Notes: a model not told the origin generated them from the letters alone. Counted from the stretch's first letter, positions 2,575 through 54,639 are shown. The stretch: 64,000 nt of DNA from Candidatus Buchananbacteria bacterium (GCA_030650095.1 JAUSEE010000002.1:6711-70710); one strand, 5' to 3'. Numbers and translations: made by a program.

Positions 2575-3630
2575 ATGAAACAAAAGCCAGGCTTTACGCT
2601 AGTGGAACTGCTTGTAGTGATTGCCATCATCGGCATTTTGGCGGCGGTTCTCTTGCCGGCTCTGGCGCGAGCGCGTGAGGCGGCCAGGCGTGCCAGTTGC
2701 GCCAGCAATCTTAAGGAGTGGGGACAGATTTTTAAAATGTTTGCCAGCGAAGCGCCAAAAGGAGAACTGCCCAGTATTGGCGGAATTCTTTTTACAGCCT
2801 CGCCCAATGCTTTCCAACTCTACCCTGATTATTGGACGGATGAGAAAATTTTGGCTTGTCCATCGGATAGTTTTTCCTCTCGATTTTTTCATACGCCCGA
2901 TCCTTTGGGCGACATTAACCAAGTGAGGCAATATTGTCCGCCGGGTCCGGCTTTGCCATCAATTATGAGCGTGCCCATTTCCTACTGGTATAGCGGTTTT
3001 GTCATACCAAGCGTTTGGGATTTTATGGGTTATGGTTTGATTATCAGGGATTATATCAGCCGTTTGTCGCCAAGTTTGTTTACAACTTCCAGCGGAACGA
3101 TTGATTTTGTTTATTGTGATCCGGCTATGAGAACTAATTTTGGCAGTATGTGGATCTGGGCCTCAATCGGCATGGATTATGATTTATCCAAATCATCGGT
3201 AGAAGAAAAGGCGAATGGCTATTCGCGCGTGGACTGGGAAGAAGTGGATTACTGGTTGAGCCAAGGGGGCAAGTCCATTAATTCGTGGACATTACCTCGT
3301 TTGCGTGAAGGCATCGAGCGCTTCCTCATTACCGATATCAATAATCCGGCTGCCAGCTCACTGGCACAAAGTTCTATTGATGTTATGTGGGACATTTGGG
3401 GCGATACAGCCGGTTACAAAGAATTGGCGCCCACCGGTCAAAACTTAGGCGGATCTTTCAATCACGTTCCCAGTGGCAGTAATGTTCTTTATTTGGATAG
3501 CCATGTCGAGTACAAGAAATTCAAATCCGGCTACCCTCTGAGCGCCGGGAATATAAACCAAAACGGCACGCTACTGGAGCAAGCCAATTATCTTATGGGA
3601 TTTTACATCGCTACCAGCGCAGCTTGGTGA
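2575..3630 (+). CDS. Prepilin-type N-terminal cleavage/methylation domain protein of DUF1559 (H-X9-DG) type
   Basis: N-term [30 protein letters not shown] (class III signal, G-F-T-L-x-E) followed by [21 protein letters not shown]; C-terminal [11 protein letters not shown] region; GC-rich 5' third. Confidence 0.6.
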
Positions 3631-3821: not shown

Positions 3822-6185
3822 ATGGGGGATAATTCAAATAACTGGCTCGGTTCCGAGGCCAGTGTTTTAGAATCTAATAAAGTTGCCAAAATAAGGAAAA
3901 GAGACGGCCGAATTGTTGATTTTAATAAGGATAAGATAAAACAGGCCATTATTAAGGCCTTTACCGCCTCCAATAATTATGATTATGAACTGGTAGACAG
4001 GCTGGTTGTGAGTGTGGTTAACATTTTAAACAACCGCTACGGGCTAGAAAACATACCTTCTATCGAAGATATCCAGAATATCGTAGAAATCATCCTGATT
4101 CATAACGATCTGCCGGCGGTAGCCAAAAATTACATTATTTACCGTGAAGAAAGATCCAAATCGCGTGAAAGGCAAAAGGCTATTTTAGACGGTTTAACCA
4201 CCAGCTTGCCTTATTCTGATAACGCCCTGAAGGTTATGGCCAAAAGGTATTTAAAAAGGGATCAGGATGACAAAGTTATTGAAACTCCCGAGCAAATGAT
4301 GGAACGGGTATCCCTGGCTTTGGCGGAAGTGGAGAAGAAATACGGCAAAAATGACGAGCAAGTGGCGCGAGTGAAAGACAGTTTTTATGAGGTTTTAAGC
4401 AAATTTGAGTTTACCCCGGCCGGACGAACCCTAAACAACGCCGGCACCGATTTACCGGTGGTGGCCAATTGCATTGTCTTAAATATCCAAGATTCCATGG
4501 ACAGTATTTTTGATACCCTCAAAGACGCCGCTCTTTTACAGCAGTCCGGCTCCGGCTTGGGCTTTCCTTTCCACACCCTAAGGCCGGCCGGTTCTCGGGC
4601 CAAAAAATCACGCGGGGTGGCTTCCGGGCCGGTTTCTTTTCTGAAAGTCTATGATCGGGCCTTTGGCGTGATAAAACAGCAGAATCGCCACGGCGCCAAT
4701 ATGGCAGTGATGAATGTGGAGCATCCGGATATTTTGGAGTTTATCCATTGCAAAGCCCGGGAAGGCGAGATTAAGAATTTTAATATTTCTGTGGGCTTAA
4801 CCGATAGGTTTATGGAAGCGGTGGAAAAAAACGATCCCAACACTTGGGTGCCGCGCTTCAACGGCCAGGATCATTCCTTGCACAGAGTGGTACGCGATGA
4901 GCAGGACACTATTTTGGACATCGTGGAAGAAAAAATGACCGCTCGCGAGATTTTTCAAGAAATCATTTCGGCCGCTTGGTCCAACGGCGAGCCGGGCTGT
5001 GTTTTCTTGGACACGGTGAACAAGGTTAACCCTTTGCCGGGCTTGGGCCGGATAGAAGCCTGCAACCCCTGCGGTGAGCAATTCTTGCACGATGGCGATG
5101 TCTGTAATTTGGGTTCTATTAATTTGGAAAAATTTGCTAGTAGCGGCGAAGTGTTGTGGGACAGATTGAAAGAAGTTACCAAAATAGCCGTGCGCATGCT
5201 GGACAATGTCACCGATATCACTAAGTACCAATCAGAAAAAGTAAATCAGGTTTCCAAAGACAATCGGCGTATCGGCTTGGGCATCATGGGCTTTGCCGAC
5301 ATGCTTTATAAACTGGGCATTGGCTACAACACGCCCGAAGGCTTTGCTATGGGCGAAAAAATAATGAAAACCATCCAGGATTCCTCTCACCAGATGTCTC
5401 AAGAATTAGCCGACGAAAAAGGACTCTTTAAAAATTATAATCATTCCGTTTACCCAGGCAGGAATGTCAGAATGAGAAATGCCGCCCTCACCAATATCGC
5501 CCCGACCGGCACGATTTCCATGACCATGGATGTCTCGGGCGGAGTGGAGCCTTATTTTGCCTTGGCCTATTATTACAAACATGTTTTGGGAGGCGATGTG
5601 GAGCTTATTTATTTCAACAAGCATTTGGAAAAAACCTTAAAGGAACAAGGCTGTTGGTCGGAAACAGTTAAACAGCAAATAATCCAAAACGGCACCCTGC
5701 AGAATGTGGCCGGCATTCCGGAAAATATCAAAAAAATATTCGTTACTTCCATGGATATTTCCGCCTCCGATCATATTAAAATGCAATCGGCGTTCCAAAA
5801 ATATTGCGACAACGCTATTTCTAAAACTGTTAACTTCCCTTATTCGGCCAGCAAAAATGACGTGATGGAAGGCTACCTGATGGCTTGGAGAATGGGTTGC
5901 AAGGGCTGTACTGTTTATCGCGACGGCTCCAGGGACAAGCAAATACTCAATATCGCCAAAGACAAAGAAACCAGCGAACCCTTAAACCCCAACGCCGGTT
6001 TAACCGATGAAATGCCCATGGTTAATACCGGCAATGTGGTTACTTCCGGCTTTAGTCCTCTTAAGCCTAATGATAAAAATGGAGTCATAGCCGGCGGAAT
6101 TTGTCCGGAATGCGGGGGATCGCTTATGATTTTAGAAGGTTGTTATACTTGCTCCAGTTGCGGAGTTAGCGCCTGCTCTATTTAA
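3822..6185 (+). CDS. nrdJ: Adenosylcobalamin-dependent (class II) ribonucleotide reductase with N-terminal ATP-cone and C-terminal Zn-ribbon
   Basis: ATP-cone VAKIRKRDGRIVDFNKDKIKQAI; RNR core with active-site Cys in CNLGSINL and a second conserved Cys in EACNPCGEQ; C-terminal CPECGG...CYTCSSCG. Confidence 0.9.
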   Translation: MGDNSNNWLGSEASVLESNKVAKIRKRDGRIVDFNKDKIKQAIIKAFTASNNYDYELVDRLVVSVVNILNNRYGLENIPSIEDIQNIVEIILIHNDLPAVAKNYIIYREERSKSRERQKAILDGLTTSLPYSDNALKVMAKRYLKRDQDDKVIETPEQMMERVSLALAEVEKKYGKNDEQVARVKDSFYEVLSKFEFTPAGRTLNNAGTDLPVVANCIVLNIQDSMDSIFDTLKDAALLQQSGSGLGFPFHTLRPAGSRAKKSRGVASGPVSFLKVYDRAFGVIKQQNRHGANMAVMNVEHPDILEFIHCKAREGEIKNFNISVGLTDRFMEAVEKNDPNTWVPRFNGQDHSLHRVVRDEQDTILDIVEEKMTAREIFQEIISAAWSNGEPGCVFLDTVNKVNPLPGLGRIEACNPCGEQFLHDGDVCNLGSINLEKFASSGEVLWDRLKEVTKIAVRMLDNVTDITKYQSEKVNQVSKDNRRIGLGIMGFADMLYKLGIGYNTPEGFAMGEKIMKTIQDSSHQMSQELADEKGLFKNYNHSVYPGRNVRMRNAALTNIAPTGTISMTMDVSGGVEPYFALAYYYKHVLGGDVELIYFNKHLEKTLKEQGCWSETVKQQIIQNGTLQNVAGIPENIKKIFVTSMDISASDHIKMQSAFQKYCDNAISKTVNFPYSASKNDVMEGYLMAWRMGCKGCTVYRDGSRDKQILNIAKDKETSEPLNPNAGLTDEMPMVNTGNVVTSGFSPLKPNDKNGVIAGGICPECGGSLMILEGCYTCSSCGVSACSI

Positions 6186-6196
6186 GTGTCACTTTG

Positions 6197-6268
6197 ATCC
6201 GCCCTGGGCGGAGAAGCAATCTCGTGTTTGATATTTGTCATTCCGACCGCAGTGGAGGAATCCCTTGG
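6197..6268 (+). repeat. Family-1 element, degenerate copy 3
   Basis: gatccgccctgggcgga gaagcaatc ... tgtcattccgaccgcagtggaggaatccc; shares 'tccgccctgggcggagaagcaatc' with the copy at 10220. Confidence 0.45.
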
Positions 6269-6299
6269 TAAAATAAAATAAATCCAGTCTATTAAAATA

Positions 6300-6480
6300 A
6301 AACACCCTTTTCTTTTTCTAGGAAAAAGAAAAGCGGTGCCAAAAGAAAAAGTCGCGAGCTGGTTAAAAATTAAGGCAAAATTTCAGCTCGCTCACTAAAG
6401 CCAATAATCCAAATAGCAACATAATATTGGCTTTTTAACGCTCGCTAAACTGAAATTTTGACACTAAATTTTTAAAGGCT
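6300..6480 (+). repeat. Conserved ~170-nt module A (structured-RNA candidate) downstream of family-1 copy 3
   Basis: Perfect 12-bp hairpin cttttctttttc-tag-gaaaaagaaaag (6307-6333) then a block homologous to 35596-35760 (agctcgct..aaagcYaataatcMaaatagcaacaKaatattRgctTtttaacRctcgct...). Confidence 0.55.
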
Positions 6481-6510
6481 CGCATTATTTTATATTAGAT
6501 TATTAATACT

Positions 6511-7026
6511 ATGATCCAAGTTTATTATGGCGATGGTAAAGGCAAAACCACGGCGGCCCTGGGATTATCCATAAGAGCTTTAGGTAGCGGCCAGAAAGTA
6601 GCCATTATCTTTTTTGACAAAGGGGGCCAGAATTATAACGAAAGGAAGATATTGGATAATCTGGGCATCGCTTATTTTTCCTATGGCCGAGACAGGCGTC
6701 TGTCTAATAACCGGTTTGATTTTTCACTTAAAGACGAAGATTTGGCGATGGCGCAAAAATCCATGGCCCAGCTTCTTAAAATACACCATGATTACGACTT
6801 GATTGTTTTAGACGAAGTTTTAAACGCCATCAGGCTGAAGATGATGCCGCTTCAAGAATTGTTGGATTATTTGGACAATAAATTGCCGCCCAATTTAGAA
6901 CTGGTTTTAACCGGCCGCGGCTTGTGGCCGGAAATAAGTGAAAGGGCCGATTTGATTTCTGAAATGAAAATGATCAAGCATTATTTTCAAAAAAAATTGC
7001 CGGCCCGAGAGGGGATAGAATACTAA
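6511..7026 (+). CDS. cobO: Cob(I)alamin adenosyltransferase, CobA/CobO/BtuR family
   Basis: P-loop VYYGDGKGKTTAALGLSIRALG diagnostic of CobA_CobO_BtuR; 171 aa. Confidence 0.8.
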   Translation: MIQVYYGDGKGKTTAALGLSIRALGSGQKVAIIFFDKGGQNYNERKILDNLGIAYFSYGRDRRLSNNRFDFSLKDEDLAMAQKSMAQLLKIHHDYDLIVLDEVLNAIRLKMMPLQELLDYLDNKLPPNLELVLTGRGLWPEISERADLISEMKMIKHYFQKKLPAREGIEY

Positions 7027-7123
7027 TCAGCTAAAAACAGTCTGCCAGAAGCGGATTGTTTTTTATTATTGTGTGTTTTCTGGACAGGAGTATAATAACA
7101 GTAATAGTTTTCCTTAGTGTTAT

Positions 7124-9043
7124 ATGGCTGGAAAAGTATCTAAAAACAGGCACTTATCAAACAATCCTAACAAGGCCGAAGTTTTTAAGTTGATTGAAAA
7201 AGAAAGGGATCATGTTTTTAATTTGATCAGTGACATTATTATTGTCGCCGATGCCAAAACTGGCATGTTAGTGGACGCTAATTTGGCCGCTCAAAAATTT
7301 TTGGGCAAAACTCTAAGCCAAATAAGGAAAATGCACCAGTCTCAGCTTCATAATAGAGCAGACCGGGCTAAATATCGTGAATCATTCAGGCAAATTGTTA
7401 AAACAGGAGGTGTCCAGGAAGATGTTTATATCTTAAATAAAAACCGAGAGCCAGTTCCTACTGATGTCAGCGCCGGTTTCATTAAAACTGGCGGGCGTGA
7501 TTATATCCAAGGAGTTTTTAGGGATGTCAGCCGCCGGAAGAAAATAGAAGAAGAATTAATCGGGCAAAAGATTAAATTTGAAACCATCTTTGATCTGTCG
7601 CCCAATTTTATTATTTATAAAAGCCAGGATGACAAATTTTTGGAAGTCAATAAAGCCTTTGTTGATTTTATCGGCCTGCCCAAAGAAAAGATTATCGGCC
7701 AATCAACCTTTGATATGATTCTAGACCAAGAGGTGGCCCAAAAAACCAGACAAGACGATTTGGAAGTTATGAAAACGGGCCGGCCAAAATTTGGCGTGAT
7801 TAGGAAATTTACCAGCCCGTTTAGCCAAAAGAGCATCTGGGGCATGTATTCTAAAGAAGCGTTTTTAGATGCCGATGGCAAGGTAATAGGCATTTTATCG
7901 GTTACCGCTGATATTACCAAGATGGTAGAATCAGAAAAAGAAATTGAACTGCAAAAAGATTTGGCTTTTGAAAGATCAGAAAAGTTGCAGGCCATTTTAG
8001 AGAATATCGGTGACTTCGTTTTTGTGATTGATCACAATTATAAAATTACCATGGTTAATAAATCAGCCTGCCAACTAGTTGGTTGTTCCTATAATCAAGC
8101 TATAGGCAAATACTATGGCGATTTTTTTAAATTTGTCTATGAGAAAAATCAGCAAGTTAATGACCAGTTTATAAAAAATGCTTTAGAAAAAGGGGTAGTG
8201 GCATCAGTGGCCAACCACACCGTTTTAATTACCAAAGACAATAAAGCCATGCCGGTTGATTTTGTGGCTTCGCCTATTAAAGATGAAAATGGCCAAATAA
8301 CCGGCGCCGTGGTTGTTTTTAGGGATATAACCAGGGAAAGAAACATAGATAGAATGAAAACAGAATTCGTTTCCATTGCTTCCCACCAGCTTAGAACGCC
8401 CTTAACCGGCATCAAATGGTTTTTGGAATTGCTATTGGATCAAAAAATAGGCGCTTTAAATGAAAAACAACTGGATTTTCTAAACCAAGTGGCGCAAAGC
8501 AACGAAAGAATGATATCGCTCGTGAGTGATCTTTTAAGCGTGTCCAGGATTGAAACAGGAGGAAAAAAGTTTGAAATCGTCAAAAGAAATATCAATATTA
8601 TCCCGGTGATCAAGAGCATTATTATGGATAATATTGTTTTAACCAAAGAGAAAAATATAAAAATAACTGGTTGTATTTATAAATTGTCCAAAATAATGAT
8701 TTTTGCCGATCCCGAACATATCAGGCAAGCCTTTCAAAACTTAATCACCAATGCCATAAAATATTCCAATAATAATGGCGTCATTGAAATTAATTGCCAA
8801 TATAAGAATAAAGAAATAATATTTTTTATCAAAGATAAAGGCGTGGGCATACCGCCAGATCAGCAAAAAAGGGTTTTTGAAAAATTTTTCCGGGCGGACA
8901 ATATTATTACTAAAGAAACCAGCGGCACCGGTTTGGGCCTTTATATCGCTAAAGCCATAATTGACGGCCATGGCGGCCGGATTTGGTTTAAGTCTAAAGA
9001 AGGCAAGGGCACGACCTTTTATTTCTCTATTCCCAAGAAATGA
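7124..9043 (+). CDS. Cytoplasmic multi-PAS sensor histidine kinase
   Basis: PAS-like repeats, H-box SHQLRTPLTGIKWFLELL, C-terminal HATPase_c (GTGLGLYIAKAII). Confidence 0.85.
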   Translation: MAGKVSKNRHLSNNPNKAEVFKLIEKERDHVFNLISDIIIVADAKTGMLVDANLAAQKFLGKTLSQIRKMHQSQLHNRADRAKYRESFRQIVKTGGVQEDVYILNKNREPVPTDVSAGFIKTGGRDYIQGVFRDVSRRKKIEEELIGQKIKFETIFDLSPNFIIYKSQDDKFLEVNKAFVDFIGLPKEKIIGQSTFDMILDQEVAQKTRQDDLEVMKTGRPKFGVIRKFTSPFSQKSIWGMYSKEAFLDADGKVIGILSVTADITKMVESEKEIELQKDLAFERSEKLQAILENIGDFVFVIDHNYKITMVNKSACQLVGCSYNQAIGKYYGDFFKFVYEKNQQVNDQFIKNALEKGVVASVANHTVLITKDNKAMPVDFVASPIKDENGQITGAVVVFRDITRERNIDRMKTEFVSIASHQLRTPLTGIKWFLELLLDQKIGALNEKQLDFLNQVAQSNERMISLVSDLLSVSRIETGGKKFEIVKRNINIIPVIKSIIMDNIVLTKEKNIKITGCIYKLSKIMIFADPEHIRQAFQNLITNAIKYSNNNGVIEINCQYKNKEIIFFIKDKGVGIPPDQQKRVFEKFFRADNIITKETSGTGLGLYIAKAIIDGHGGRIWFKSKEGKGTTFYFSIPKK

Positions 9044-9072
9044 TATTTAGAATAGTTGTAGATAATAAAAAT

Positions 9073-9216
9073 GTCATTGCGAGCCTGCCTGTCGGTAGAC
9101 AGGCTTGCGAAGCAATCCCACGGCTGTAGGATACGAGATTGCTTCTCCGCCTTCGCGAGGACTCGCTTGAGCTTCCTCGCAATGACAAGAATAAAGAGCT
9201 CATTCACAATGACATT
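9073..9216 (+). repeat. Family-1 nested-palindrome element, copy 4 (extended)
   Basis: gtcattgcgag + extra hairpin cctgcctgtcggtagacaggc + gaagcaatcc..gatacgag attgcttc ... ctcgcaatgac, then a second ...caatgaca. Confidence 0.75.
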
Positions 9217-9224
9217 TAGAAAAT

Positions 9225-9524
9225 ATGACTAAATATTATTATATTTATATTCTAACCAATAAACATAATAGAGTATTATATATAGGTGTAACCAATAATT
9301 TAATCAAAAGAGTTTGGGAGCATAAAAATAAAATAAATAACAATTCATCTTTTACTAGAAGATATAATATTGATAAATTAGTCTATTATGAATAGAGTGA
9401 ATCAGTCCATAATGCTATTGCTAGAGAAAAACAGTTAAAAGGAGGATCTAGAAAACAAAAGGTAGATTTGATAAATACTTTAAATCCGGAGTGGAAAGAT
9501 CTTTATATAGAAATGACAAAATAG
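9225..9524 (+). pseudogene. Small GIY-YIG nuclease family gene with an in-frame TAG (nonsense-disrupted)
   Basis: Frame translation MTKYYYIYILTNKHNRVLYIGVTNNLIKRVWEHKNKINNNSSFTRRYNIDKLVYYE*SESVHNAIAREKQLKGGSRKQKVDLINTLNPEWKDLYIEMTK; GIY...YIG...R...E...N layout of the short COG2827-type proteins; TAG at 9393-9395. Confidence 0.7.
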
Positions 9525-9544
9525 TGCCATTATTAGGCCTTACT

Positions 9545-9643
9545 GTCATTGCGAGCCTGCCTGTCGGCAGACAGGCTTGTGAAGCAATCCTATGGTTGTA
9601 GGATACGAGATTGCTTCGGTCGCTGTGGCTCCCTCGCAATGAC
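9545..9643 (+). repeat. Family-1 nested-palindrome element, copy 5
   Basis: gtcattgcgag cctgcctgtcggcagacaggcttgt gaagcaatcc tatggttgtaggatacgag attgcttc ggtcgctgtggctcc ctcgcaatgac. Confidence 0.75.
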
Positions 9644-9672
9644 AAGTAGAATCACTATAAATAGCAAAAGTC

Positions 9673-9718
9673 GTCATTGCGAGCCTGCCTGTCGGCAGAC
9701 AGGCTTGTGAAGCAATCC
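9673..9718 (+). repeat. Family-1 element, 5' half only (copy 6)
   Basis: Identical to the first 46 nt of copy 5, truncated 27 nt before the receiver gene start. Confidence 0.65.
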
Positions 9719-9744
9719 ATATTTATTAATTAAAATATAACATC

Positions 9745-10113
9745 ATGAAGAAAAAGATATTAATAGTGGAAGATGACAATTTTTTACAAAAAGCCCTGGG
9801 GCATGCCTTGTTAGAGAATGATTTCGATATTATTTCGGCTGTAAGCGGCGAGCAAGCAGTTCCCTTGGCTAAAAACGCTAAACCGGATTTGATTCTACTG
9901 GATATAATTTTGCCCAAAAAAGACGGTTTCGTGATAATGGAGGAATTAAAAAATGATTCGGCCATAGCTTCCATACCGGTAATATTTATCACTAATCTGG
10001 GGCAGAAGGAGGATGTTAAAAAAGGCTTGGATTTGGGAGCAAAAGGTTATATTATCAAAGCTCATTTTAAGATAGCTGATATTATTGATAAGATAAATGA
10101 AGTTTTAAAATAA
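9745..10113 (+). CDS. Single-domain response regulator (receiver only, CheY-like)
   Basis: ILIVEDD...LILLDIILPKKDGF...KGYIIK; no output domain. Confidence 0.85.
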   Translation: MKKKILIVEDDNFLQKALGHALLENDFDIISAVSGEQAVPLAKNAKPDLILLDIILPKKDGFVIMEELKNDSAIASIPVIFITNLGQKEDVKKGLDLGAKGYIIKAHFKIADIIDKINEVLK

Positions 10114-10130
10114 TAATCACATAATCATAA

Positions 10131-10250
10131 AATACGAGATTGCTTCGTTGCACTTTGTTTCGCTCGCAATGACAAGGATATAGAACTCCCTCGCAATGAC
10201 AGGAAAGAACGTCATTGCGATCCGCCCTGGGCGGAGAAGCAATCCCATGG
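10131..10250 (+). repeat. Family-1 element fragments (3' half + 5' half, rearranged; copy 7)
   Basis: aatacgag attgcttc ... ctcgcaatgac ... ctcgcaatgac ... gtcattgcga tccgccctgggcgga gaagcaatccc. Confidence 0.6.
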
Positions 10251-10286
10251 TTATAAAGCACTTACTATTAATGCAATTATAAGTAT

Positions 10287-10661
10287 ATGAAAAAAATTTT
10301 AGTCATAGAAGACGACAATATACTGCAAAGCGCTATCTCTACTGCTCTAAAAGATGCCGGTTTTAGCACGGTTCAATCTTTTGACGGCGTAGACGGATTA
10401 AAAAAAGCCAAGAAAAACAATATCAATTTAATTTTATTGGATTTACTTATGCCCAAAAAAGACGGCTGGGAAGTTTTAAAAATGCTTAAAAAAGATAATA
10501 AAACCAAGAATATTCCGGTTTTTGTCTTAACAGTTTATGAGGGCGAGAACAGCATTTCTAAGTGTTTGTCTTTGGGCGCCAAAGGTTATTTTATCAAATC
10601 AAAATATTCGCTGGATGAAATAATAAAAAATATAAAAAATGAAATTGGCAAGGCTAAATAA
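10287..10661 (+). CDS. Single-domain response regulator (receiver only)
   Basis: ILVIEDDN...LILLDLLMPKKDGW...KGYFIK. Confidence 0.85.
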   Translation: MKKILVIEDDNILQSAISTALKDAGFSTVQSFDGVDGLKKAKKNNINLILLDLLMPKKDGWEVLKMLKKDNKTKNIPVFVLTVYEGENSISKCLSLGAKGYFIKSKYSLDEIIKNIKNEIGKAK

Positions 10662-10671
10662 ATAATCAGAT

Positions 10672-10706
10672 AATAAGACGGCTTAGACTAGCCGTCTTAT
10701 TTAATA
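10672..10706 (+). terminator. Rho-independent terminator
   Basis: taagacggct taga ctagccgtctta followed by tttaatatt. Confidence 0.55.
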
Positions 10707-10808
10707 TTAGCTGTTTGGTTTATTTTTTAAATAAGTGTTATAATAATAAAAGAACATAACAAAAATTGCATAATAAAAATTAGAAATTAATTAAATATTT
10801 GTTTTAAT

Positions 10809-11465
10809 TTGATAATTTTTATGTTTAGAAAATATTTCATTATTTTAACCGTTTATTTAATCGGTTTGGCTTCTTTGGCGATCATAGTGGCTTGGATTTT
10901 TGATATTACTGTGGTTTTATCTATTTTGCCTGGCTTTATCACTATAAAATTCAGTACCGCCTTAGCTTTCTTTTTAAGCTCGCTTATCTTGTATTTTGCT
11001 TATTATTCCCCTCAAGGCAGGTTTGCCAATCTGAATTTAATTATTGTTTCATTTTCCATCTTAATTATTTGGATTATGATGATAACAATTTTAGTTTCTA
11101 TTATTTTTGGTTTCAAAAGCGGTATAGAAAATTTGTTTATTATTGATACAACCATAGCTACTAACCCCTATGTACCCGGGAGACCATCACTAGGCACTAT
11201 AGTCGCTTTTTTACTCATTACCATTTTAGGCCTTAATATTTTTTACGAAGGAAAGTGGAAAAATCAGCTATTTTTATTTCTTGGATCTTTAGTGTTTCTA
11301 ATCGGAGCAGTGTCTAAGATCGGCCTAATATTGGCCGTGCCTGTTTTGTATTATGACGTTCCTTCTATTAGCAATGCTATTTCCATACCGGCCAGCATTC
11401 TTTTTATGTTTATCGGGCTGGCCTTTTCTCTGCTTTATAAAATAAATCCCAAACGCCAAGCATGA
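10809..11465 (+). CDS. Polytopic membrane protein translationally coupled to the downstream histidine kinase
   Basis: 218 aa, ~6 TM helices; its stop overlaps the HK start (ATGA at 11462-11465). Confidence 0.5.
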   Translation: MIIFMFRKYFIILTVYLIGLASLAIIVAWIFDITVVLSILPGFITIKFSTALAFFLSSLILYFAYYSPQGRFANLNLIIVSFSILIIWIMMITILVSIIFGFKSGIENLFIIDTTIATNPYVPGRPSLGTIVAFLLITILGLNIFYEGKWKNQLFLFLGSLVFLIGAVSKIGLILAVPVLYYDVPSISNAISIPASILFMFIGLAFSLLYKINPKRQA

Positions 11466-13684
11466 AATTATTCACTCAATTAGTTACATTATTCATAGGC
11501 TTAACCCTTATTCCTTTAATATTTGTCGGCTTGCTTACTTATGCCAATACCAAAGGCGTTATTACTGATCAGATAATGGCTCAGTTGGTTTCTATTGCTG
11601 ATATTAAGAAAAATCAGATGAACCAGGTTATTGATGCTTATCTGGCAGATGTGGAAGAGTTAGCTTTACGAAATTATTTGCGCCTTAATTTAGAGGAGTA
11701 TAATCAAAATCCCACCATCGAACTGGCCTCGTCTATTGAAGCTAATATTTTCGATAGCTTGATATCTTCCCCTGAAATTGTTTCTATTGCCATTAAAGAT
11801 TCAAAAGGAAAAACAGTAGCTTCTGTGGGGGATGATTATGTGGAGCCGTTAGTAAACACAAAACAGTCGCCGGCTATAGAGAATATTTTTATGAATAGCC
11901 AAGGCATTCCTCGCGTTTTGCTTAGAAGTCCTATTATTGTAAATAATTCTACTATCGGATCCGTTGAGGTAGTAAGCAAAATTGATCCCTTTCGTATAAT
12001 AGCCGGTGATTATTCGGGCTTAGGCCAGTCGGGCGAGGTTTTAATAGCCAAGAAAAACGAAGCTGGTGATGCTCTTTTTTTAACGCCCATACGCTTTGAT
12101 CAAGGTGCCGCTCTAAAGCGGATTGTTAAAAAAGACAGAACCGATGTACCCTCTACCCATGCTGTTTCCGGCGAAGAAGCCTTTTTTCTGTCTGGCATGG
12201 TTGATTATCGCGGGGTTCCTGTTTTGGCGGTTACCAGGTTTATTGACAGACAAGGTTGGGGTATTGTGGTTAAAATAGATCGTGATGAAGTTTTTCAGCC
12301 ACTTACCAGCATATTGTTAACCTTTATTGTCATTATCACTACCACCCTTTTAGCGGTTGTTTTAGTAGCGGTTTTTGTGGCGCGCGCCATAACCAAGCCA
12401 ATCAGTCAATTATCCCAGGCGGCTGGAAAATTATCCCAAGGCAATTTTACCGCGGCTATAGAAATCATAAGTTATTATCCCAGCAATGAAATAGGCGTAA
12501 TGGCTAAGGCTTTTACTAAAATGGCATCCCAACTCAAAGAATTATACAGAAATTTAGAGGCCAAAGTGAAAGAGAGGACGCATGATTTAGAAAAATTCGA
12601 ATTGGCTGTGGATAGCGCCTATGATCAAATAGTTATTACTAATCCCGATGGCTTGATCTTGCATGCCAACAAATCCATAGAAAGGATTACCGGTTTTAAA
12701 TTAAAAGAGGTTTTAGGCCGGAAAGTCGGATCAAGGGAATTGTGGGGTGGACAAATGGGACCGGATTTTTATAAAAAATTATGGAAAACAATCAAAATAG
12801 ATAAAAAAACTTTTTCCGGAGAATTAATAAACCATCGCAAGAACGGTGATAATTATAATGTGCTGGTTAGGATTTCGCCGGTTTTGGATGATAAAAACCG
12901 GGTTGTTTATTTTGTGGGCATTGAAAGGGATATTACCAAGGAAAAAGAAGTGGATAAAATGAAAACCGAATTTGTCTCGGTGGCTTCGCATCAGCTTAGA
13001 ACGCCACTCACTGCCATTAGGTGGTATGTCGAGGAAGTTTACAACGGTGAACTGGGCAAGTTAAATAAAAATCAAAAAGATTATCTTAAACAGATACTGG
13101 AATCAAATGAGAGGATGATCAGGCTGGTTAATGATCTCTTGAATGTTTCCAGATTGGAAAGCGGTCGGGTAACTGTTGAACCTGTTTTAACTGATTTAGT
13201 TGAATTGATTGGCACCGTAGTTAACGAATGCGGTATATTAGCTAAGGCTAAAAATTGCCAATTGAATTTTATCAAACCAAAAAGCAAGATATCCAAAATA
13301 AAAATAGACCCAGTTTTAATCGCGCAAGTTATAAATAATTTGGTTTCCAATTCCCTTAAATATTCCAAGTCCAGCGGTGAAAAATGTTCAGTGGTAATTG
13401 ATTTGTCTAAAAAAGACCCAAATGTTATCATTAGCGTAAAAGATAACGGCATTGGCATACCTTCTGGTCTTCAGAATCGTGTTTTTGATAAGTTTTTTAG
13501 GGCCGACAATGCCATTAAATCAGAAACCGAGGGCACCGGCCTGGGTCTTTACATTTCCAAGATGGTGGTGGAAGCATCGGGTGGAAAAATCTGGTTTGAA
13601 TCCAGCGAAGATGGAACAACTTTCACTTTTACCTTGCCGCTCTCTGGCAGTCCGGCGCGCAAAGGTGAAAAAGGCTTATCTTAA
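11462..13684 (+). CDS. Membrane sensor histidine kinase (extracytoplasmic sensor domain, HAMP, PAS, HisKA, HATPase_c)
   Basis: N-terminal TM + ~280-aa periplasmic-like domain + second TM; SHQLRTPLTAIRWYVEEV H-box; GTGLGLYISKMVV G2 box. Confidence 0.85.
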   Translation: MKLFTQLVTLFIGLTLIPLIFVGLLTYANTKGVITDQIMAQLVSIADIKKNQMNQVIDAYLADVEELALRNYLRLNLEEYNQNPTIELASSIEANIFDSLISSPEIVSIAIKDSKGKTVASVGDDYVEPLVNTKQSPAIENIFMNSQGIPRVLLRSPIIVNNSTIGSVEVVSKIDPFRIIAGDYSGLGQSGEVLIAKKNEAGDALFLTPIRFDQGAALKRIVKKDRTDVPSTHAVSGEEAFFLSGMVDYRGVPVLAVTRFIDRQGWGIVVKIDRDEVFQPLTSILLTFIVIITTTLLAVVLVAVFVARAITKPISQLSQAAGKLSQGNFTAAIEIISYYPSNEIGVMAKAFTKMASQLKELYRNLEAKVKERTHDLEKFELAVDSAYDQIVITNPDGLILHANKSIERITGFKLKEVLGRKVGSRELWGGQMGPDFYKKLWKTIKIDKKTFSGELINHRKNGDNYNVLVRISPVLDDKNRVVYFVGIERDITKEKEVDKMKTEFVSVASHQLRTPLTAIRWYVEEVYNGELGKLNKNQKDYLKQILESNERMIRLVNDLLNVSRLESGRVTVEPVLTDLVELIGTVVNECGILAKAKNCQLNFIKPKSKISKIKIDPVLIAQVINNLVSNSLKYSKSSGEKCSVVIDLSKKDPNVIISVKDNGIGIPSGLQNRVFDKFFRADNAIKSETEGTGLGLYISKMVVEASGGKIWFESSEDGTTFTFTLPLSGSPARKGEKGLS

Positions 13685-13711
13685 AATAAAATACAAAATA
13701 ATAACAAGTTT

Positions 13712-14092
13712 ATGGCCAAGAAAAAATCATACAAAATCCTGGTAGTGGAAGATGAACCGGCTCTCCAGCAAACATTGGGGGATAAAATCAAACGCGAGGG
13801 TTGGGAGTATATCCCATCTTTAAACGGCGAAGAGGGCTTAAGGACGATTAAGAAATCACAGCCTGATTTGATTATTTTGGATTTGCTTATGCCCAAAATG
13901 AGCGGATTGGAGATGTTAAAAGAAGTGCGAAAAATTTATGATAAGCAGGATTTGCCGGTGATAATTTTGACTAATTACAGCGAAGGCCAGAATGTCAGCG
14001 AAGCCATAGCTTTGGGAGCTGATATTTTCCTAGTTAAAGCCAATTATTCCCTGGAAGAAATTATTGAAAAGATAAGAGAGGTTTTGGATTAA
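13712..14092 (+). CDS. Single-domain response regulator (receiver only)
   Basis: ILVVEDEPAL...LIILDLLMPKMSGLE. Confidence 0.85.
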   Translation: MAKKKSYKILVVEDEPALQQTLGDKIKREGWEYIPSLNGEEGLRTIKKSQPDLIILDLLMPKMSGLEMLKEVRKIYDKQDLPVIILTNYSEGQNVSEAIALGADIFLVKANYSLEEIIEKIREVLD

Positions 14093-14113
14093 ATAATAAT
14101 ATCTACATCAGAA

Positions 14114-14506
14114 GTGATGATAGCAGAGAACAAAATAAAACCGGATTGTAAGATTTTATTAGCCGAAGGCGACAGATTCTTATCGAAAGTTATCAGCAAT
14201 AAGCTGCTGCGGCGCGGTTTCTGCCTGTCTTTGGCTAATGACGGCTTGGAAGCTATGGCTAAAATAAAGACCGAACAGTTTGATTTGGTTTTACTGGATT
14301 TAACTTTAAGCAAGAAAAACGGCTTGGAAGTTTTGGCCGAATTAAAGAAAGATAAGAAATTAAAAATAAAAATCGTGGTTTTGTTAAGCTTAAGCAAAAC
14401 CAGCGACATAGAAAAAATAAAAAAATTAGGCATTACCGATTATATTATTAAAAGTGATTTGTCTATAAATACGCTGGCGGATAAAGTGGGAGAATTGATC
14501 AAATAA
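14114..14506 (+). CDS. Single-domain response regulator (receiver only, divergent)
   Basis: KILLAEGD...LVLLDLTLSKKNGLE...DYIIKS. Confidence 0.8.
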   Translation: MMIAENKIKPDCKILLAEGDRFLSKVISNKLLRRGFCLSLANDGLEAMAKIKTEQFDLVLLDLTLSKKNGLEVLAELKKDKKLKIKIVVLLSLSKTSDIEKIKKLGITDYIIKSDLSINTLADKVGELIK

Positions 14507-14603
14507 CAAAAAAGAAGGGGGGATAGCGCTGGTAGCTATTTTTATGTTATAATTAAAAAGCATATTTGTATGCTTAATTTTAGAAAGTAAATAAAAATAG
14601 ATT

Positions 14604-14999
14604 ATGCTGGGCCTAAAAAAACAAACAGCTAACAAGAAAGTCTTGCTGGTAGAGGATGATTCCCTTCTGGCTAACATATTAATGGATTCACTGGTTCGCG
14701 AAAAGTTTGACGCCGTTAACATAAAAGACGGCTTAGGGGTAATGGAGGCGGCTCAAAAGTTTAAGCCCGATATTGTTTTATTGGATTTGATTTTGCCGGG
14801 CCTGGACGGCTTTGAAGTCCTGAGGCAACTGAAAGCTGACAGCAAATTGAAAAGCGTGCCGGTTTTTATAATCTCTAATTTAGACAGCATTTCTGAGGTT
14901 AAATCGGCCAAAGCTTTGGGGGCGGAAGATTATTTTATCAAAGCCAATACCGATATAGAAAAAATCATAAAAGTAGTCAAAAAACGAATTAATAAGTAA
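14604..14999 (+). CDS. Single-domain response regulator (receiver only)
   Basis: VLLVEDDS...IVLLDLILPGLDGFE...DYFIKA. Confidence 0.85.
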   Translation: MLGLKKQTANKKVLLVEDDSLLANILMDSLVREKFDAVNIKDGLGVMEAAQKFKPDIVLLDLILPGLDGFEVLRQLKADSKLKSVPVFIISNLDSISEVKSAKALGAEDYFIKANTDIEKIIKVVKKRINK

Positions 15000-15058
15000 T
15001 ACCTATGCCACTAAGCGCGGATAAGGAGGAAAAAAAGCCCAGCGTAAAAGGAAACAAG

Positions 15059-15415
15059 ATGATTCTGATAGTGGAAGACGATCAGGTTCTTTTGAGGGTG
15101 ATGTATCTGTTTTTAAAGAGAAGATCCGGTTTTGCCATAGCTACCGCCAGCGATGGCGATACGGCCTTGAAAATGGCCCAAAGGCTTAAACCGAATGTTA
15201 TTTTATTAGATCTGATTCTGCCAAAAATGGATGGTTTTTCGGTCTTAAAATCACTTAAATCCGATCCGATGATGAAAGACATACCAGTGATAGTTTTATC
15301 CAATTTGGGGGATACCGGCGACATTGATAAAGCCAAAGATCTGGGCGCGGCTGATTATTTTGTCAAAGCCAATACCGATTTAGCCGTTATTTTGGAAAAA
15401 ATAAAAAATTATTAA
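15059..15415 (+). CDS. Single-domain response regulator (receiver only)
   Basis: Start moved to ATG 15059 (MILIVEDDQ, AAGGA 8 nt upstream); VILLDLILPKMDGFS...DYFVKA. Confidence 0.8.
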   Translation: MILIVEDDQVLLRVMYLFLKRRSGFAIATASDGDTALKMAQRLKPNVILLDLILPKMDGFSVLKSLKSDPMMKDIPVIVLSNLGDTGDIDKAKDLGAADYFVKANTDLAVILEKIKNY

Positions 15416-15424
15416 TTTAACCAT

Positions 15425-16249
15425 ATGCTCCAAACTCGTTGGTTGAATCTGGTGCTTCTGCTGACCAACAGGATTTATGAGCAAAAACAACAAGTTATCA
15501 GGAGGTCTGGCCTAAGTGCCATACTTAATGTTTTCAATTTGGTTTTACTAGAGCTTTTCTTGGGTCTAATTTCCTTCCCGCTTTATCTGGGCATGAGAGC
15601 CGGAAAAGTCTCTACTTTTTTGGAGGATAAAAGCGGTTATGAAAAAATAACTTTTGATTATAACTTACGCCGCGTCCTGACTTTAACCAGCGCGAGCGTT
15701 ATTTTTTTTATTTGGCTGGTTAAGCTTTCGGTGATTGTCTTGGCGCCCACTTTTTTCGGGCCGATACAGCTTTATTCGGTTTCTGATTTGAGGCCGGTGG
15801 ACCTCTTGGAAAAAGAAATAATCGTGGCCGAAACTCGTATTCAGACAGCCCGGGTTTTGGATCAAATGACTGTGCCCGAGCTTAAAAAAGTGGATAAATT
15901 AAGAGGCGGCAATTATCGTTTTTACGGCACCGGCCAGCCCCAAACCAAGGTAGTTTTACTGGTGGCTGATACTCAAACGCTTATTTTAATCGGCGATACT
16001 GACGATAAAGGCAATTGGCAGGTGGATTTAATTAGAAGTGAATTCAAATTAAGCGCAGGCAACCATTCCGTTTTGGTTTTTAATTTTGATGAAGCTAAAG
16101 AGGTTCGTAGCCAAGTATCATACAAGCAATATTTTAAATCAAAAGATACTCTAATTGATCAATTGGTAAAGAACACTGATATTTTTATCAATTCATCAAT
16201 AATAATCGTTATAATCTTGGGCATTCTCTTAACTGTCTTAACTCTTTAA
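15425..16249 (+). CDS. Membrane protein whose N-terminal ~60 aa are paralogous to the N-terminus of the downstream giant protein
   Basis: MLQTRWLNLVLLLTNRIYEQKQQV...LELFLGLISFPLYLGM versus MSERWLNLFLKLSGFIFNTKQKV...FELGFAIISLPMYLIV in the 16254 ORF; C-terminal TM. Confidence 0.5.
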   Translation: MLQTRWLNLVLLLTNRIYEQKQQVIRRSGLSAILNVFNLVLLELFLGLISFPLYLGMRAGKVSTFLEDKSGYEKITFDYNLRRVLTLTSASVIFFIWLVKLSVIVLAPTFFGPIQLYSVSDLRPVDLLEKEIIVAETRIQTARVLDQMTVPELKKVDKLRGGNYRFYGTGQPQTKVVLLVADTQTLILIGDTDDKGNWQVDLIRSEFKLSAGNHSVLVFNFDEAKEVRSQVSYKQYFKSKDTLIDQLVKNTDIFINSSIIIVIILGILLTVLTL

Positions 16250-16253
16250 ACAT

Positions 16254-19200
16254 ATGTCTGAAAGATGGCTCAATTTATTTTTAAAGCTCTCCGGTTTCAT
16301 CTTTAATACCAAACAGAAAGTGGTGAAGGCTGATAATTGGGTGATGGTTATTCCTCATGTTTTGGTTATTATAGTTTTTGAGCTGGGTTTTGCCATTATT
16401 TCTTTGCCCATGTATCTGATTGTTTCTCCTAAGGCAGTCCAGGAAAGAGGCTTTATTTTTCCCATGGGGGAAGGGGAAAAAAGCGACAAAAAAGATGTGA
16501 TTCGCGTTTATACTGCCAGAAGGAGAATCAGCCTAACTACCGGGGCTGGCGCCGGCACATTTTTTGTTTTAAAAATTTTGCTTATTGTTTTTACTTCGCT
16601 TTATCTTTTGGGCGCTCAAAAACTGTTGGCTGCTACCCAGGATTGGACTTTTGACACGGCCGGCGATTACACCTATGACAGCGCCAAAATAGAGGTGACT
16701 GGCGGCGTAGGACGGTTAAAAAATATCGGCAGCGCTACTTCCGGCTCTACCACCAATTCTGCTTTTACCAGTGACGCTACCGATTGGACTTATGCCGATT
16801 GGCTTAATAACGCTGGCGCTAGCGGGGCTTATTCTTCCACTGGCGGCAATACCGGAGGCAATGTGCAAATTACTTTAAGTTCGGCAAAAAATAAAACCAC
16901 TGCCGGTTTGTATAGGCAGTCATTTACGACAACTGTTGATTCTCCGGATACAGCCACTTTGAATTTGGATTGGTCATCAATCAGCTATTCGGTGCCGGCC
17001 CCCTTTGATACTTACCAGCTTTACGCTTTTATTGATACGGCCAGTGGCGATCCGACATTGGGACAGCAGGTCTGGAGCAGCGGTGAAATTACCGGCACGA
17101 CCGCTTGGGCGAGCAGCGCCACCATTGATATTACCAGTAAGGTTCCAACTGCTGACACTTATTACTTAAAAATCGTCGCTTATCATGATACGCCCGGCAC
17201 TACTGGCACATACACTACTGTAGCCGGTTTTGATAATGTGGTTGTTAATTGGTCTAAAACCACCGTGCTTTATGCTTCTGATAGGCCAACTATTAATCCA
17301 ACCACTTCCTTGAGTAATGAATTTGTAACTACTTGGGATTCCTTTACTGAAACAGCCACCAAAAACGGCGGTGAAATCTATTATCAATTATCCAATGATG
17401 ACGGCGCAACTTGGCAATATTGGAACGGCAGCGCCTGGGCGACAGCCGGAGCCAGCAATTACAACACCGGCTCGGTTATAAATACCAATATAAGCACTTT
17501 CGGCGTTACCAACCATAAAATAAGGTGGAAAGCATATTTAGAAAGCAACGGCAGCCAACAGGTCATACTTGATAATGTCAATATCGGTTATACCGAAAAC
17601 GATCCGACTCATGTCCAAAACTTATCCCCAGCGCAAAACACCACTTCCGGCTTAATGCATGTTAATTATGAATTAAAGGATGATCAAAGCGATCCGGCTT
17701 CGCTGGTGGTTTACGAATATTCTTTAACCGGCGCCTTTAGTGGTGAACAAACAACTATGACTGCTTCCACTACTGATGCCAGCCATAATGGCGTGTCCGG
17801 ACTCTCCAGTTCGCCGACCGGTGTGGCTCATACCTTTGTCTGGGACGCTCAAACTCAAATCGGCGCTATTTATGATGCATCTGTTTATGTTCGGTTGCGG
17901 GGTAGTGACGGCATCAATGTCGGTGATCATACCACTTCTACCGCTTTCGCCGTGGATTATGTGGTGCCGGTAGTTACAAATGTCAGCGCTTCTCAAGTGT
18001 CTGGTTCTACTAATGTCACTATAACTTATGATTTAGCCGATGATACTTCGGATAATTTGTTGGTGGAATTAGGTATTTCCAATGATGGCGGTAGCACCTG
18101 GGTAGTGCCGACAGTTACTGCTTCCGGACATGTCGGTTCCGGAGTGACAGCCGGCACCGGCAAATCCATTACTTGGAATGCCGGCACTGATTATGATGAG
18201 CACCAGCAGAGCACTATGCAAGTTAGAGTGAGAGCTAAAGATAAATATCAAAACCAAGGTTCTTATGCTTCTTCGGCTAATTTCACTTTAGACACTTTAA
18301 ACCCGGTTACCAATGCCACCTCTAATTTACAGGCCCAGCCTAATGCCGGAGATACCACGGTTTCCATTAGCGGTTCCTTTACCGAAGCTAATCCTAATAC
18401 TAATGATTTTTATGCGGCTCTAAATGGCGGAGCTTACTCTTCGGCTACAGCCGGCGCATCTGATACGGTAACGCCCGGCACTCAATCAACAGCGGTGGGC
18501 GTCACTTTGGACGGCAATGATTATATCTCCGGCGTCAAAATCACCCACACTGATGATTTCGGCCAAGCGACTGATAACGAAAACACTTCTCCTAATACGG
18601 CTTACAAATACGTTAAGCCTTACACTCCGCAAGCTCCGACCTTGGATAATCCGGTAACCACCAGATTGGACTTAACTATTAATCCGCATGCTTCAGAAAC
18701 TAGTGGTTTAGATTATTTAATTCAAGAAACCACCAGCGGCAATTATGTCCAGGCTGACGGCACTTTGGGCGCCAGCGAGGTTTGGCAGGTAATGGGCACC
18801 GGCAGCGGACAGTGGGGCAATAACACCAGCGTTAGCGGCAAAGTAAGAATTACTGGTTTAAGCTCACCGGTGGCTAATTATATTTTTAAAGTCAAATCAA
18901 GAAATAATAGTGATACTGCTCATGCCGCATCTTCTGAATCAGCTTTCTCCTCTACCGCTCAAATTACCAATACCGCGCCTTCCATCGCCTTGGGCAGCGT
19001 GGCGCAAACCACCGATGGCACGCGTTATGTGCCTGTAAATTATACCGGCACAGACGGCCAAGGTGATTTAAATGATATAACCGTTTATGAATATTCCACT
19101 GATAATTCCGCTTGGAACACGATGACGGAAAAGAGCGGTGTCGGTTCTGAGGGCTTGGCTGATTTGGTTTTCTTATCCGGCGGCAGCGCTCATAATTTTG

Positions 19201-48272: not shown

Positions 48273-48590
48273 AGGCTTGGGCTGCTCGGGAGGTGGGAGG
48301 GTTAAGTTTTGGAAAGGATCCTTTATTTGCTCGGTATTGATCTGTTCTGTTTGGATTTTAGATTCAACATTGCTTATAATCTGGTTAAACTTATCCCTTT
48401 CCAAGCTTTGGTCGGATATTTCTTTTCTGAGATCGGTAATAAGCTCGGCTTGAATTATAGTTTGATAAACATTGTTGTATAAAAATCTGGTTAAGATAAT
48501 CAGGGTAATAACAATCACAATTATAGTGGCCGGGTAAAGATAGCGGACTATCAGAAAAAAATTGATTTTTTTAATATTTGGGCGTTTCAT
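48270..48590 (-). CDS. Small membrane protein at the end of the pilus operon
   Basis: 106 aa, one TM, overlaps pilO stop; no motif. Confidence 0.3.
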   Translation of the reverse strand: MKRPNIKKINFFLIVRYLYPATIIVIVITLIILTRFLYNNVYQTIIQAELITDLRKEISDQSLERDKFNQIISNVESKIQTEQINTEQIKDPFQNLTLPPPEQPKP

Positions 48591-49132: not shown

Positions 49133-49134
49133 AG

Positions 49135-50726: not shown

Positions 50727-50797
50727 TTTTTATTTTGTCTGTTTAATTATAACAGATATTACTACAAAATATAATTTATTTTACAAATTTTATAAAC

Positions 50798-54496: not shown

Positions 54497-54639
54497 AAAA
54501 ATTTATTAAGATGGATTTGTCTGCCAGGTCTGTGGTAGACAATATCGATAGGCAGATATAAATCCGCCAGATCCCTCGGTTTCGGCTTCGCCTTCACTCA
54601 GGATGACATTTTTATTGATGCGGATATAAATCCGCTTTG

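Follow-up and report, generated by a model that had tools for sequence, protein, structure and literature searches.

Stand-alone receivers beside two PAS-type histidine kinases in Candidatus Buchananbacteria, and a conserved gene cassette with a giant surface protein

In the flagellar switch, phosphorylated CheY binds a conserved N-terminal peptide of FliM. A comparable arrangement is considered here for a signalling island at positions 7124 to 15415 of a 64 kb stretch of DNA (the window) from a metagenome-assembled genome of Candidatus Buchananbacteria, ultra-small bacteria that belong to the candidate phyla radiation (CPR, Patescibacteria). The island encodes two sensor histidine kinases (HK1 and HK2), a membrane protein (MEM) and six stand-alone receivers (RR1 to RR6), all on the plus strand, and its last two receivers are followed directly by the genes of a small membrane protein, P274, and of a giant envelope protein. 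The likeness to CheY and FliM is that a receiver-only protein is proposed to bind a short conserved N-terminal segment of a structural target. In contrast to that system, both kinases are sensors of the HisKA type, the target would be a membrane module of the giant, the positions following the conserved T/S and K of the receivers (T+1 and K+1) are Asn and a residue other than Pro, and no CheA, CheW, methyl-accepting chemotaxis protein (MCP) or flagellar gene was found in the window. This and the other statements below on missing gene families refer to a Pfam scan of open reading frames (ORFs) with 110 aa or more across the 64 kb, and of shorter ones within the island only.

By sequence, RR1, RR5 and RR6 matched DivK and PleD of Caulobacter best (PleD REC1 in the Protein Data Bank, E 3.5e-21). 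Receivers of this type are diffusible and work via protein-protein contacts with several kinases. In contrast, the NCBIfam scores fell far short of the equivalog thresholds (72.8 vs 474 bits in one case), the genomic context is different, and the island holds no GGDEF protein and no DivL, CckA or ChpT partner. The resemblance of the receivers to PleD REC1, DivK, Spo0F and CheY is at a generic level only. The LapD-LapG-LapA system offers an analogy in the way it works: as there, a small membrane protein would pass on a cytoplasmic signal and so decide the fate of a giant surface protein that is rich in repeats and encoded next to it. Unlike Lap, the window contained no c-di-GMP enzyme or receptor, LapG-type protease or type I secretion genes, a phosphorylated receiver would carry the signal, and the giant is anchored by transmembrane (TM) helices at both ends.

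Stand-alone receivers are a frequent type of response regulator and make up approximately 40% of the archaeal ones (PMC5847659). As in the island, the archaeal systems combine kinases with multiple receiver-only proteins and few or no DNA-binding regulators, and their signalling is presumed to be by protein-protein contact (PMC5847659). Most of the archaeal receiver-only genes are in no conserved neighbourhood, which prevented inference of their function (Galperin et al. 2018, PMC5847659). In contrast, the neighbourhood of RR5 and RR6 is strictly conserved, and the lineage is bacterial and has a residue signature of its own. The island is two-component signalling via single-domain receivers, set apart by the cassette, the shared N-terminal module of its last two proteins and the residue set described below. 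The cassette of RR5, RR6, P274 and the giant appears to be undescribed in the literature that could be searched: no account of it or of CPR receiver-only arrays was found in full texts (subscription titles lay outside this search), and response regulators go unmentioned in a published preprint on giant genes.

The RR5-RR6-P274-giant cassette

A cassette was defined as one or more receiver-only genes directly 5' of genes for a protein of approximately 270 aa and a protein of >1000 aa that share an N-terminal module with two TM helices (the N-module). This arrangement was found at 14604-25826 of the window, where the receiver-only genes RR5 (14604-14999, 131 aa) and RR6 (15005-15415, 136 aa) are genes 1 and 2, followed by P274 (15425-16249) and the giant (16254-25826), all on the plus strand and separated by gaps of 5, 9 and 4 bp, respectively. 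When P274 was used as bait in metagenome contigs, 27 loci were obtained, and pooling with loci baited with RR6 gave 24 distinct cases. An RR6-type gene was present immediately 5' of P274 in 24 of 24 distinct loci, an RR5-type gene preceded RR6 in all 22 loci with room for it, and a giant homologue followed P274 in 18 of the 18 loci with room. The intergenic gaps were mostly 1-25 bp. All five contexts baited with RR6 had the order receiver, RR6, a 266-274-aa protein and a giant of 1109 to 4674 aa. Two distant relatives (P274 identity 24-28%) had a single receiver in front of the P274-like protein and the giant. At one distant locus (L082, 2751-12843), a receiver gene, a gene for a 280-aa P274-like protein and a giant of >2485 aa lay directly 3' of PilB-like (T2SSE) and PilC-like (T2SSF) genes, and this was the sole locus with a pilus-type neighbour. 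The kinases 5' of the cassette varied from HK1-like or HK2-like to another type or none within approximately 9 kb, with no kinase found in that distance upstream at four loci (L051, L052, L058 and L066), and no other candidate partner gene was conserved in the neighbourhood. These findings place RR5 and RR6 as the two invariant opening genes of an operon that is CPR-wide, and the pair go beyond simple partners of HK2. In a preliminary description of the island the receivers as a group had been linked to the giant surface protein; the gene order strongly backs that link for RR5 and RR6 and gives no such backing for RR1 to RR4.

At least 2701 homologues of RR6 were found. Among the best 120 of them, the Pfam matches were of the receiver type only, apart from a second match (PF23198) in one of two longer proteins of 213-224 aa; the other 118 had 117-173 aa. 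All organism names given by the source for these 120 were CPR. The identity of RR6 was 58-87% across Buchanan-, Falkow-, Magasanik- and Uhrbacteria. When 84 distinct CPR receivers were placed in a neighbour-joining tree, the RR5 and RR6 types formed sister clades with one member of each per locus.

P274 is composed of the N-module (an N-terminal helix and two TM helices), one immunoglobulin (Ig)-like domain and a C-terminal TM anchor. Its relatives formed 105 clusters, 100 of approximately 264-275 aa and five of 204-243 aa (one marked partial); they are unnamed as proteins, and every organism name given by the source was CPR. An AlphaFold2 model of P274 from an alignment of 66 sequences (predicted local distance difference test 74, predicted template modelling score 0.41) contained three helices at the N-terminus, followed by a linker helix, a beta-sandwich and the C-terminal TM helix. 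The beta-sandwich was similar to Ig-like domains in Bap and SiiE, two giant adhesins, and the N-terminal helix was at least 90% conserved across the 66 sequences. The giant is 3190 aa long and contains the N-module, repeats, Big_13, Big_6 and fn3 domains, and a C-terminal TM helix with a RIRKKN tail. Its repeats of approximately 110 or 220 aa, which match no Pfam family, carry eight Asp-box-like motifs, S-[ENSD]-[DN]-G-G-[SA]-T-W (SxDGGSTW), and eight ITW[ND]AG.D motifs were also present. Homologues of the giant ranged from 1109 to >5600 aa and were best conserved over the first ~700 residues.

The N-termini of P274 and the giant (approximately 125 residues) were found to be paralogous. The layout of this N-module is a helix, RWLNLxLxL...KQ, a long TM helix with E..L..IS.P.Y, a charged loop ending in Y..RR..TLT and a second TM helix, and residues E43, S50, P52, Y79, R82, R83 and K100 are invariant between the two proteins. 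A profile of the module gave 127 matches in 1.84 billion representative proteins, all at the extreme N-terminus (residues ~2-125), and the matching proteins fell into two size classes, one of approximately 265-285 aa and one of >1000 up to 5686 aa. No kinase or phosphotransfer domain was detected in the N-module by Pfam, NCBIfam or the AlphaFold2 model. Because the C-terminal Ig-like domain and anchor of P274 also resemble the C-terminus of the giant, P274 looks like a 'mini-giant', that is, the giant minus its middle.

Receivers, kinases and their residue signatures

The six receiver ORFs (122-136 aa) had Response_reg as their sole Pfam family (58.9-83.2 bits, cut-off 30.2 bits), with the domain spanning residues ~2-130, and all six are stand-alone (single-domain) response regulators. 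PhoB/OmpR models aligned by their receiver half only (profile ~1-120 of 226), where the island proteins stop. The NCBIfam models for CheY reached 54-76 bits, below the cut-offs of 189-200, and no receiver was assigned to a named NCBIfam equivalog. The five catalytic residues (E-D, D, T/S and K) were complete in RR1, RR2, RR3, RR5 and RR6, and not in RR4. Across the 84 CPR receivers, the second acidic residue (DD2) was D in 81, the phospho-acceptor D was present in 83 and the K in 84. In likeness to CheY, the aromatic switch residue, the T/S and the K are kept in the receivers of the island. Pairwise identity among the six island receivers was 28-44%, compared to 67-87% between each of them and its orthologues in other genomes, indicating that they are old, specialised paralogues. 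With no output domain, ancient paralogues and the full catalytic set in five of the six, output by protein-protein contact or a role as phosphate sinks is a reasonable expectation.

RR1 (9745-10113, plus strand, 122 aa) has the full catalytic set and was found together with HK1, its orthologues being 72-79% identical and beside HK1 at three loci (L002, L003 and L050). RR2 (10287-10661, plus strand, 124 aa) is a sister paralogue of RR1 with Val at T+1, and the tree placed the two in sister clades tied to HK1. RR3 (13712-14092, plus strand, 126 aa), also with the full catalytic set, lies 27 bp 3' of HK2 and formed a clade of its own; its orthologues lie directly 3' of HK2 at L004 (67%) and L053 (75%). 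RR4 (14114-14506, plus strand; the true start is probably the ATG at 14117) is a degenerate receiver on a long tree branch. Its acidic pocket reads E-G-D, with Gly at DD2, and D+4 is Ser; the phospho-acceptor D and the K are retained. In its orthologue at L053 (5577-5975) the pocket is E-G-N and the T/S is missing, at L004 (11990-12486) RR4 survives just as an internally deleted remnant, and intact copies were found in the window and L053 only. DD2 is non-acidic in approximately 80% of pseudo-receivers (Bourret laboratory perspective, PMC12632262), which RR4 resembles in lacking the second acidic residue. In contrast, it keeps the phospho-acceptor Asp and the Lys, and it is being lost in a sister genome and shows no clear new function. 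RR4 is pseudo-receiver-like and apparently dispensable.

HK1 (7124-9043, plus strand) is a soluble sensor histidine kinase with three PAS domains, HisKA and HATPase_c; no TM segment was called by hydropathy, which was used for TM segments throughout, and orthologues are present at L002, L003 and L050. MEM (10809-11465, plus strand) is polytopic with approximately six TM segments, probably starts at the ATG at 10821 (214 aa) and had no Pfam or NCBIfam match. Only four homologues of MEM were found among 5.8 billion proteins, and the gene was directly 5' of HK2 every time (L002, L003 and L053). In the window its stop overlaps the HK2 start by 4 bp (translational coupling). HK2 (11462-13684, plus strand) has two TM segments flanking an extracytoplasmic domain of ~250 aa with a weak Cache-like Pfam match, followed by HAMP, PAS, HisKA and HATPase_c, and a 65% identical orthologue is present at L004. 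The Pfam scores for HK1 and HK2 were 69.2 and 69.0 bits for HisKA (cut-off 26.9) and 105.7 and 99.8 bits for HATPase_c (cut-off 26.4), respectively, and both proteins are HisKA-type kinases in that HisKA with the conserved His is followed by HATPase_c. No named kinase equivalog of NCBIfam (WalK, PhoR, PnpS and others) was reached, the best being WalK, for which the two kinases scored 262.6 and 282 bits (cut-off 725). The two kinase cores were 47% identical, and helix 1 of their dimerization and histidine phosphotransfer (DHp) domains was nearly identical, TEFVS[IV]ASHQLRTPLT[GA]I[KR]W[FY].

The preliminary description had set out two PAS-type kinases, a membrane protein and six co-directional stand-alone receivers, and Pfam confirmed this composition. 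Its question as to whether Response_reg was the only domain was answered in the affirmative for all six, with no C-terminal output domain found, and its view of the receivers as divergent and long specialised agrees with the identities given above. The conserved Asp pocket that it had ascribed to every receiver holds for five of them and not for RR4. It had also reported no Hpt, CheA/CheW or MCP proteins, and none were found among the scanned ORFs, nor were GGDEF/EAL proteins or DNA-binding response regulators. A Spo0B-type phosphotransferase was likewise missing among these ORFs, so that no multistep phosphorelay is visible there.

In HisKA kinases, an E or D right after the phospho-acceptor His and a T or N at H+4 form the kinase/phosphatase motif, and the acidic residue at H+1 is normally required for autophosphorylation. 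In both HK1 and HK2 the H-box is S-H-Q-L-R-T-P (window 8350-8390 and 12955-12995), with Gln at H+1, while the Thr at H+4 is retained. Of 18 kinases from CPR loci, 16 had Gln at H+1, compared to none of the 21 from non-CPR loci, all of which had Glu or Asp. The same counts apply to the H-box S-H-Q-L-R-T-P-L with Trp at H+11, noted for HK1, HK2 and among loci L002-L011, L024 and L053-L073, and the string HQLRTPL was not found in the full-text literature searched. A parallel pattern was seen in the 84 stand-alone CPR receivers, in which T+1 was Asn in 75, K+1 was Ala, Ser or Thr in 82 and Pro in one, and K+2 was Asn or Asp in 66. Non-CPR receivers from the same searches (Omnitrophota, Bacteroides, Chloroflexi and others) had, with three exceptions, T followed by Ala, Gly or Asp and K followed by Pro. 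The kinase and receiver samples for these counts were small and picked by similarity to HK2. At the CPR loci sampled with HK2, all receiver ORFs were stand-alone (121-158 aa), often several per locus; the related Bacteroides kinases were followed by receiver-containing regulators of ~227 aa that are OmpR-type by size and position only. In published work, Ala or Gly occupies T+1 in 74% of receivers and this position controls access to the phosphorylation site, and the K+1/K+2 pair, most commonly Pro-Phe, shifts conformational equilibria (PMC12632262, PMC8510515). The CPR residues near the catalytic centres are a natural test of current ideas on the part that T+1 and K+1/K+2 play in receiver kinetics and in conformational balance (PMC12632262, PMC8510515).

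Mosaic composition and neighbouring genes

Comparison with related loci showed that the island is a mosaic of three units: A, HK1-RR1-RR2; B, MEM-HK2-RR3-RR4; and C, RR5-RR6. Units A and B are gained and lost independently among relatives. HK1-RR1-RR2-MEM-HK2 is kept on two groundwater contigs, the Falkowbacteria locus L050 has HK1-RR1-RR2-RR5-RR6-P274-giant with no HK2 module, and L053 has MEM-HK2-RR3-RR4-RR5-RR6-P274-giant with no HK1. The island had been presented as one unit, and the independent presence and absence of the HK1 and HK2 modules contradicts this. The locus of a sister species, L004, reads RNR-CobO-(two unrelated genes)-HK2-RR3-(RR4 remnant)-RR5-RR6-ZIP. From this locus, where the ZIP transporter gene follows RR6, the giant gene had been considered an unrelated insertion; wider sampling of loci overturned this and left L004 as the exception.

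The gaps between HK1 and RR1 (702 bp) and between RR1 and RR2 (174 bp) are filled by material outside the signalling system. Palindromic repeats and a truncated GIY-YIG ORF occupy 9053-9745. The ORF (9225-9395, plus strand, Pfam E 2.5e-9) is flanked by repeat units (GTCATTGCGAG...CTCGCAATGAC, GTCATTGCGAGCC...GAAGCAATC and GATTGCTTC...CTCGCAATGAC), and a further repeat copy is present at 10115-10260, 5' of RR2. These elements look like mobile insertions because the HK1-RR1 gap in L050 is merely 5 bp. No RNA family was found by Rfam in 6000-17000, and the palindromic repeats had no Rfam match. A scan of 6100-16500 gave 56 promoter-like sites vs 34 expected, with none in the gap between RR4 and RR5, and terminator-like sites in the same region were at chance level.

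Upstream of the island, genes for ribonucleotide reductase (RNR, 787 aa), which was read as the B12-dependent class II enzyme, and corrinoid adenosyltransferase (CobO) adjoin each other (window 3822-7026; L004 4150-7207; L050 201-3085), and the pair is syntenic 5' of signalling genes in these three genomes. A pilin-like protein of 351 aa that has a methylation motif at its N-terminus is encoded at 2575-3630 (plus strand), 3.5 kb 5' of the island; at other loci it shows no synteny with the cassette. An operon for a type IV pilus (pilM/N/O-pilin-pilC-pilB by Pfam) lies at 48587-56367 on the minus strand, adjoined by a gene for a metallo-beta-lactamase-fold protein (56496-57341, minus strand; Pfam Anti-Pycsar Apyc1, 98.7 bits, cut-off 50). 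This operon had been described as next to the island. It lies 33 kb off, at 48.5-56.4 kb and on the opposite strand, and is not syntenic with the cassette elsewhere; on this distance and the lack of synteny, a link of the pilus genes to the island was rejected, L082 being noted as the one locus with such genes beside the cassette.

Proposed mechanism, alternatives and significance

In the proposed mechanism, HK1, HK2 or both would phosphorylate several receivers in a branched, one-to-many manner. Such overlap between kinases and receivers is plausible because of the similarity of the two kinase cores and the near identity of their DHp helix 1. Output of the receivers would be by protein-protein contact, as suggested by the lack of an output domain, and the post-translational control of surface structures named in the preliminary description is likewise inferred. 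The target of RR5 and RR6 would be the N-module common to P274 and the giant, and the likeliest docking site on it would be the conserved, positively charged loop (Y..RR..TLT; Y79, R82 and R83). If the Ig-like ectodomains are outside the cell, this loop is cytoplasmic and the N-terminal helix is outside. From the cell interior, phosphorylated RR5 and RR6 could then act on how the giant surface protein is assembled or anchored, or on its conformation, and RR1 to RR4 would be further branch outputs or phosphate sinks. An action of RR5 and RR6 on P274 and the giant, or together with them, via protein-protein contact is rated slightly more likely than not. The contact site on the N-module is uncertain, and direct docking on its loop is a tentative proposal that is rather doubtful. 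Somewhat less doubtful, and still on the speculative side, is an undescribed switch across the CPR in which one or two phosphorylatable receiver-only proteins dock on the N-module of a mini-giant and a double-anchored giant, with a parallel re-tooling of two-component residues (Gln at H+1 in the kinases; in the receivers, Asn at T+1 and Ala, Ser or Thr instead of Pro at K+1).

Several observations weigh against this mechanism. The main one against a dedicated partnership of RR5/RR6 with P274 and the giant is L004, which has no HK1 module, no P274 and no giant and yet retains RR5-RR6, so that the two receivers can persist without the pair. Gene order in the cassette shows functional coupling and not direct contact. 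Moreover, the loci were retrieved with P274 or RR6 as bait, and cassette-free relatives are therefore under-sampled. With Gln at H+1 in the H-box, the predicted kinase activity of HK1 and HK2 is not assured. How the N-module is oriented in the membrane is ambiguous: its N-terminal helix and its loop are similar in charge balance, hydropathy and charge fit either orientation, and the most conserved stretch, the N-terminal helix, would be outside the cell in the simplest model. The confidence of the P274 model is just moderate, as seen in the template modelling score given above.

It is also conceivable, and considered unlikely, that all six receivers merely tune phosphoryl flow from HK1 and HK2 as CheY-type sinks, with the position of RR5 and RR6 next to the giant reflecting shared transcription and no physical or regulatory effect on the giant. 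The lack of output domains, the several receivers per kinase in many CPR loci, the near-identical DHp helix 1 of HK1 and HK2 and the state of L004 are consistent with this. However, a sink should follow its kinase, whereas RR5 and RR6 follow P274 and the giant while the kinases 5' of them differ or are absent within 9 kb, and the identity of RR6 across candidate phyla suggests a conserved partner surface. Slightly less probable still is that phosphorylated RR5 and RR6 bind a cytoplasmic partner, such as RNA polymerase, a sigma or anti-sigma factor, a protease adaptor or a ribosome-associated factor, and so set the level of the P274-giant operon without contacting the two proteins. Receiver-only adaptors such as CpdR, SdrG and RssB-like proteins do act via other proteins, and receivers at the 5' end of an operon with gaps of a few base pairs are a layout typical of autoregulation. 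Against this, no candidate partner gene is conserved nearby, and the dedicated and highly conserved N-module of P274 and the giant would be left unexplained.

Signal flow in the opposite direction, with the giant and P274 as a contact sensor (for example, of a host cell) that signals via the N-module to RR5 and RR6 and then to pili or division, has the same synteny evidence as the inside-out mechanism; adhesin-type Ig domains suit contact sensing, and at L082 the PilB- and PilC-like genes are directly 5' of the cassette. This is regarded as improbable, as an N-module without a kinase or phosphotransfer domain cannot phosphorylate receivers, and the association with pilus genes is confined to one locus, the pilus operon of the window being distant. 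The least probable reading, to which very little weight is given, is that of the preliminary description, in which the whole island would be a single system for post-translational control of pili or motility. The type IV pilus operon and the pilin-like gene are indeed within the 64 kb, but the operon is remote and on the opposite strand, the island splits into independently inherited modules, and neither CheA/CheW/MCP nor PilG/H-type Chp genes were found among the scanned ORFs.

For RR5 and RR6, the strict and deep-branching gene partnership with the giant and its small paralogue is a concrete candidate target for orphan receivers. Of the kinase frequencies reported in PMC10805038, those of the CPR are the lowest (0.289 per 100 genes), and therefore this 8-kb block, with its two kinases and six receivers, probably accounts for a large part of the signalling capacity of this organism. 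Cultivated CPR are attached to other microbes (PMC12206443), and a regulated giant surface protein, if true, bears on how these bacteria engage their hosts. The mechanism proposed for RR5 and RR6 would then amount to a transcription-independent, inside-out control of the main surface structure, and possibly of host attachment.

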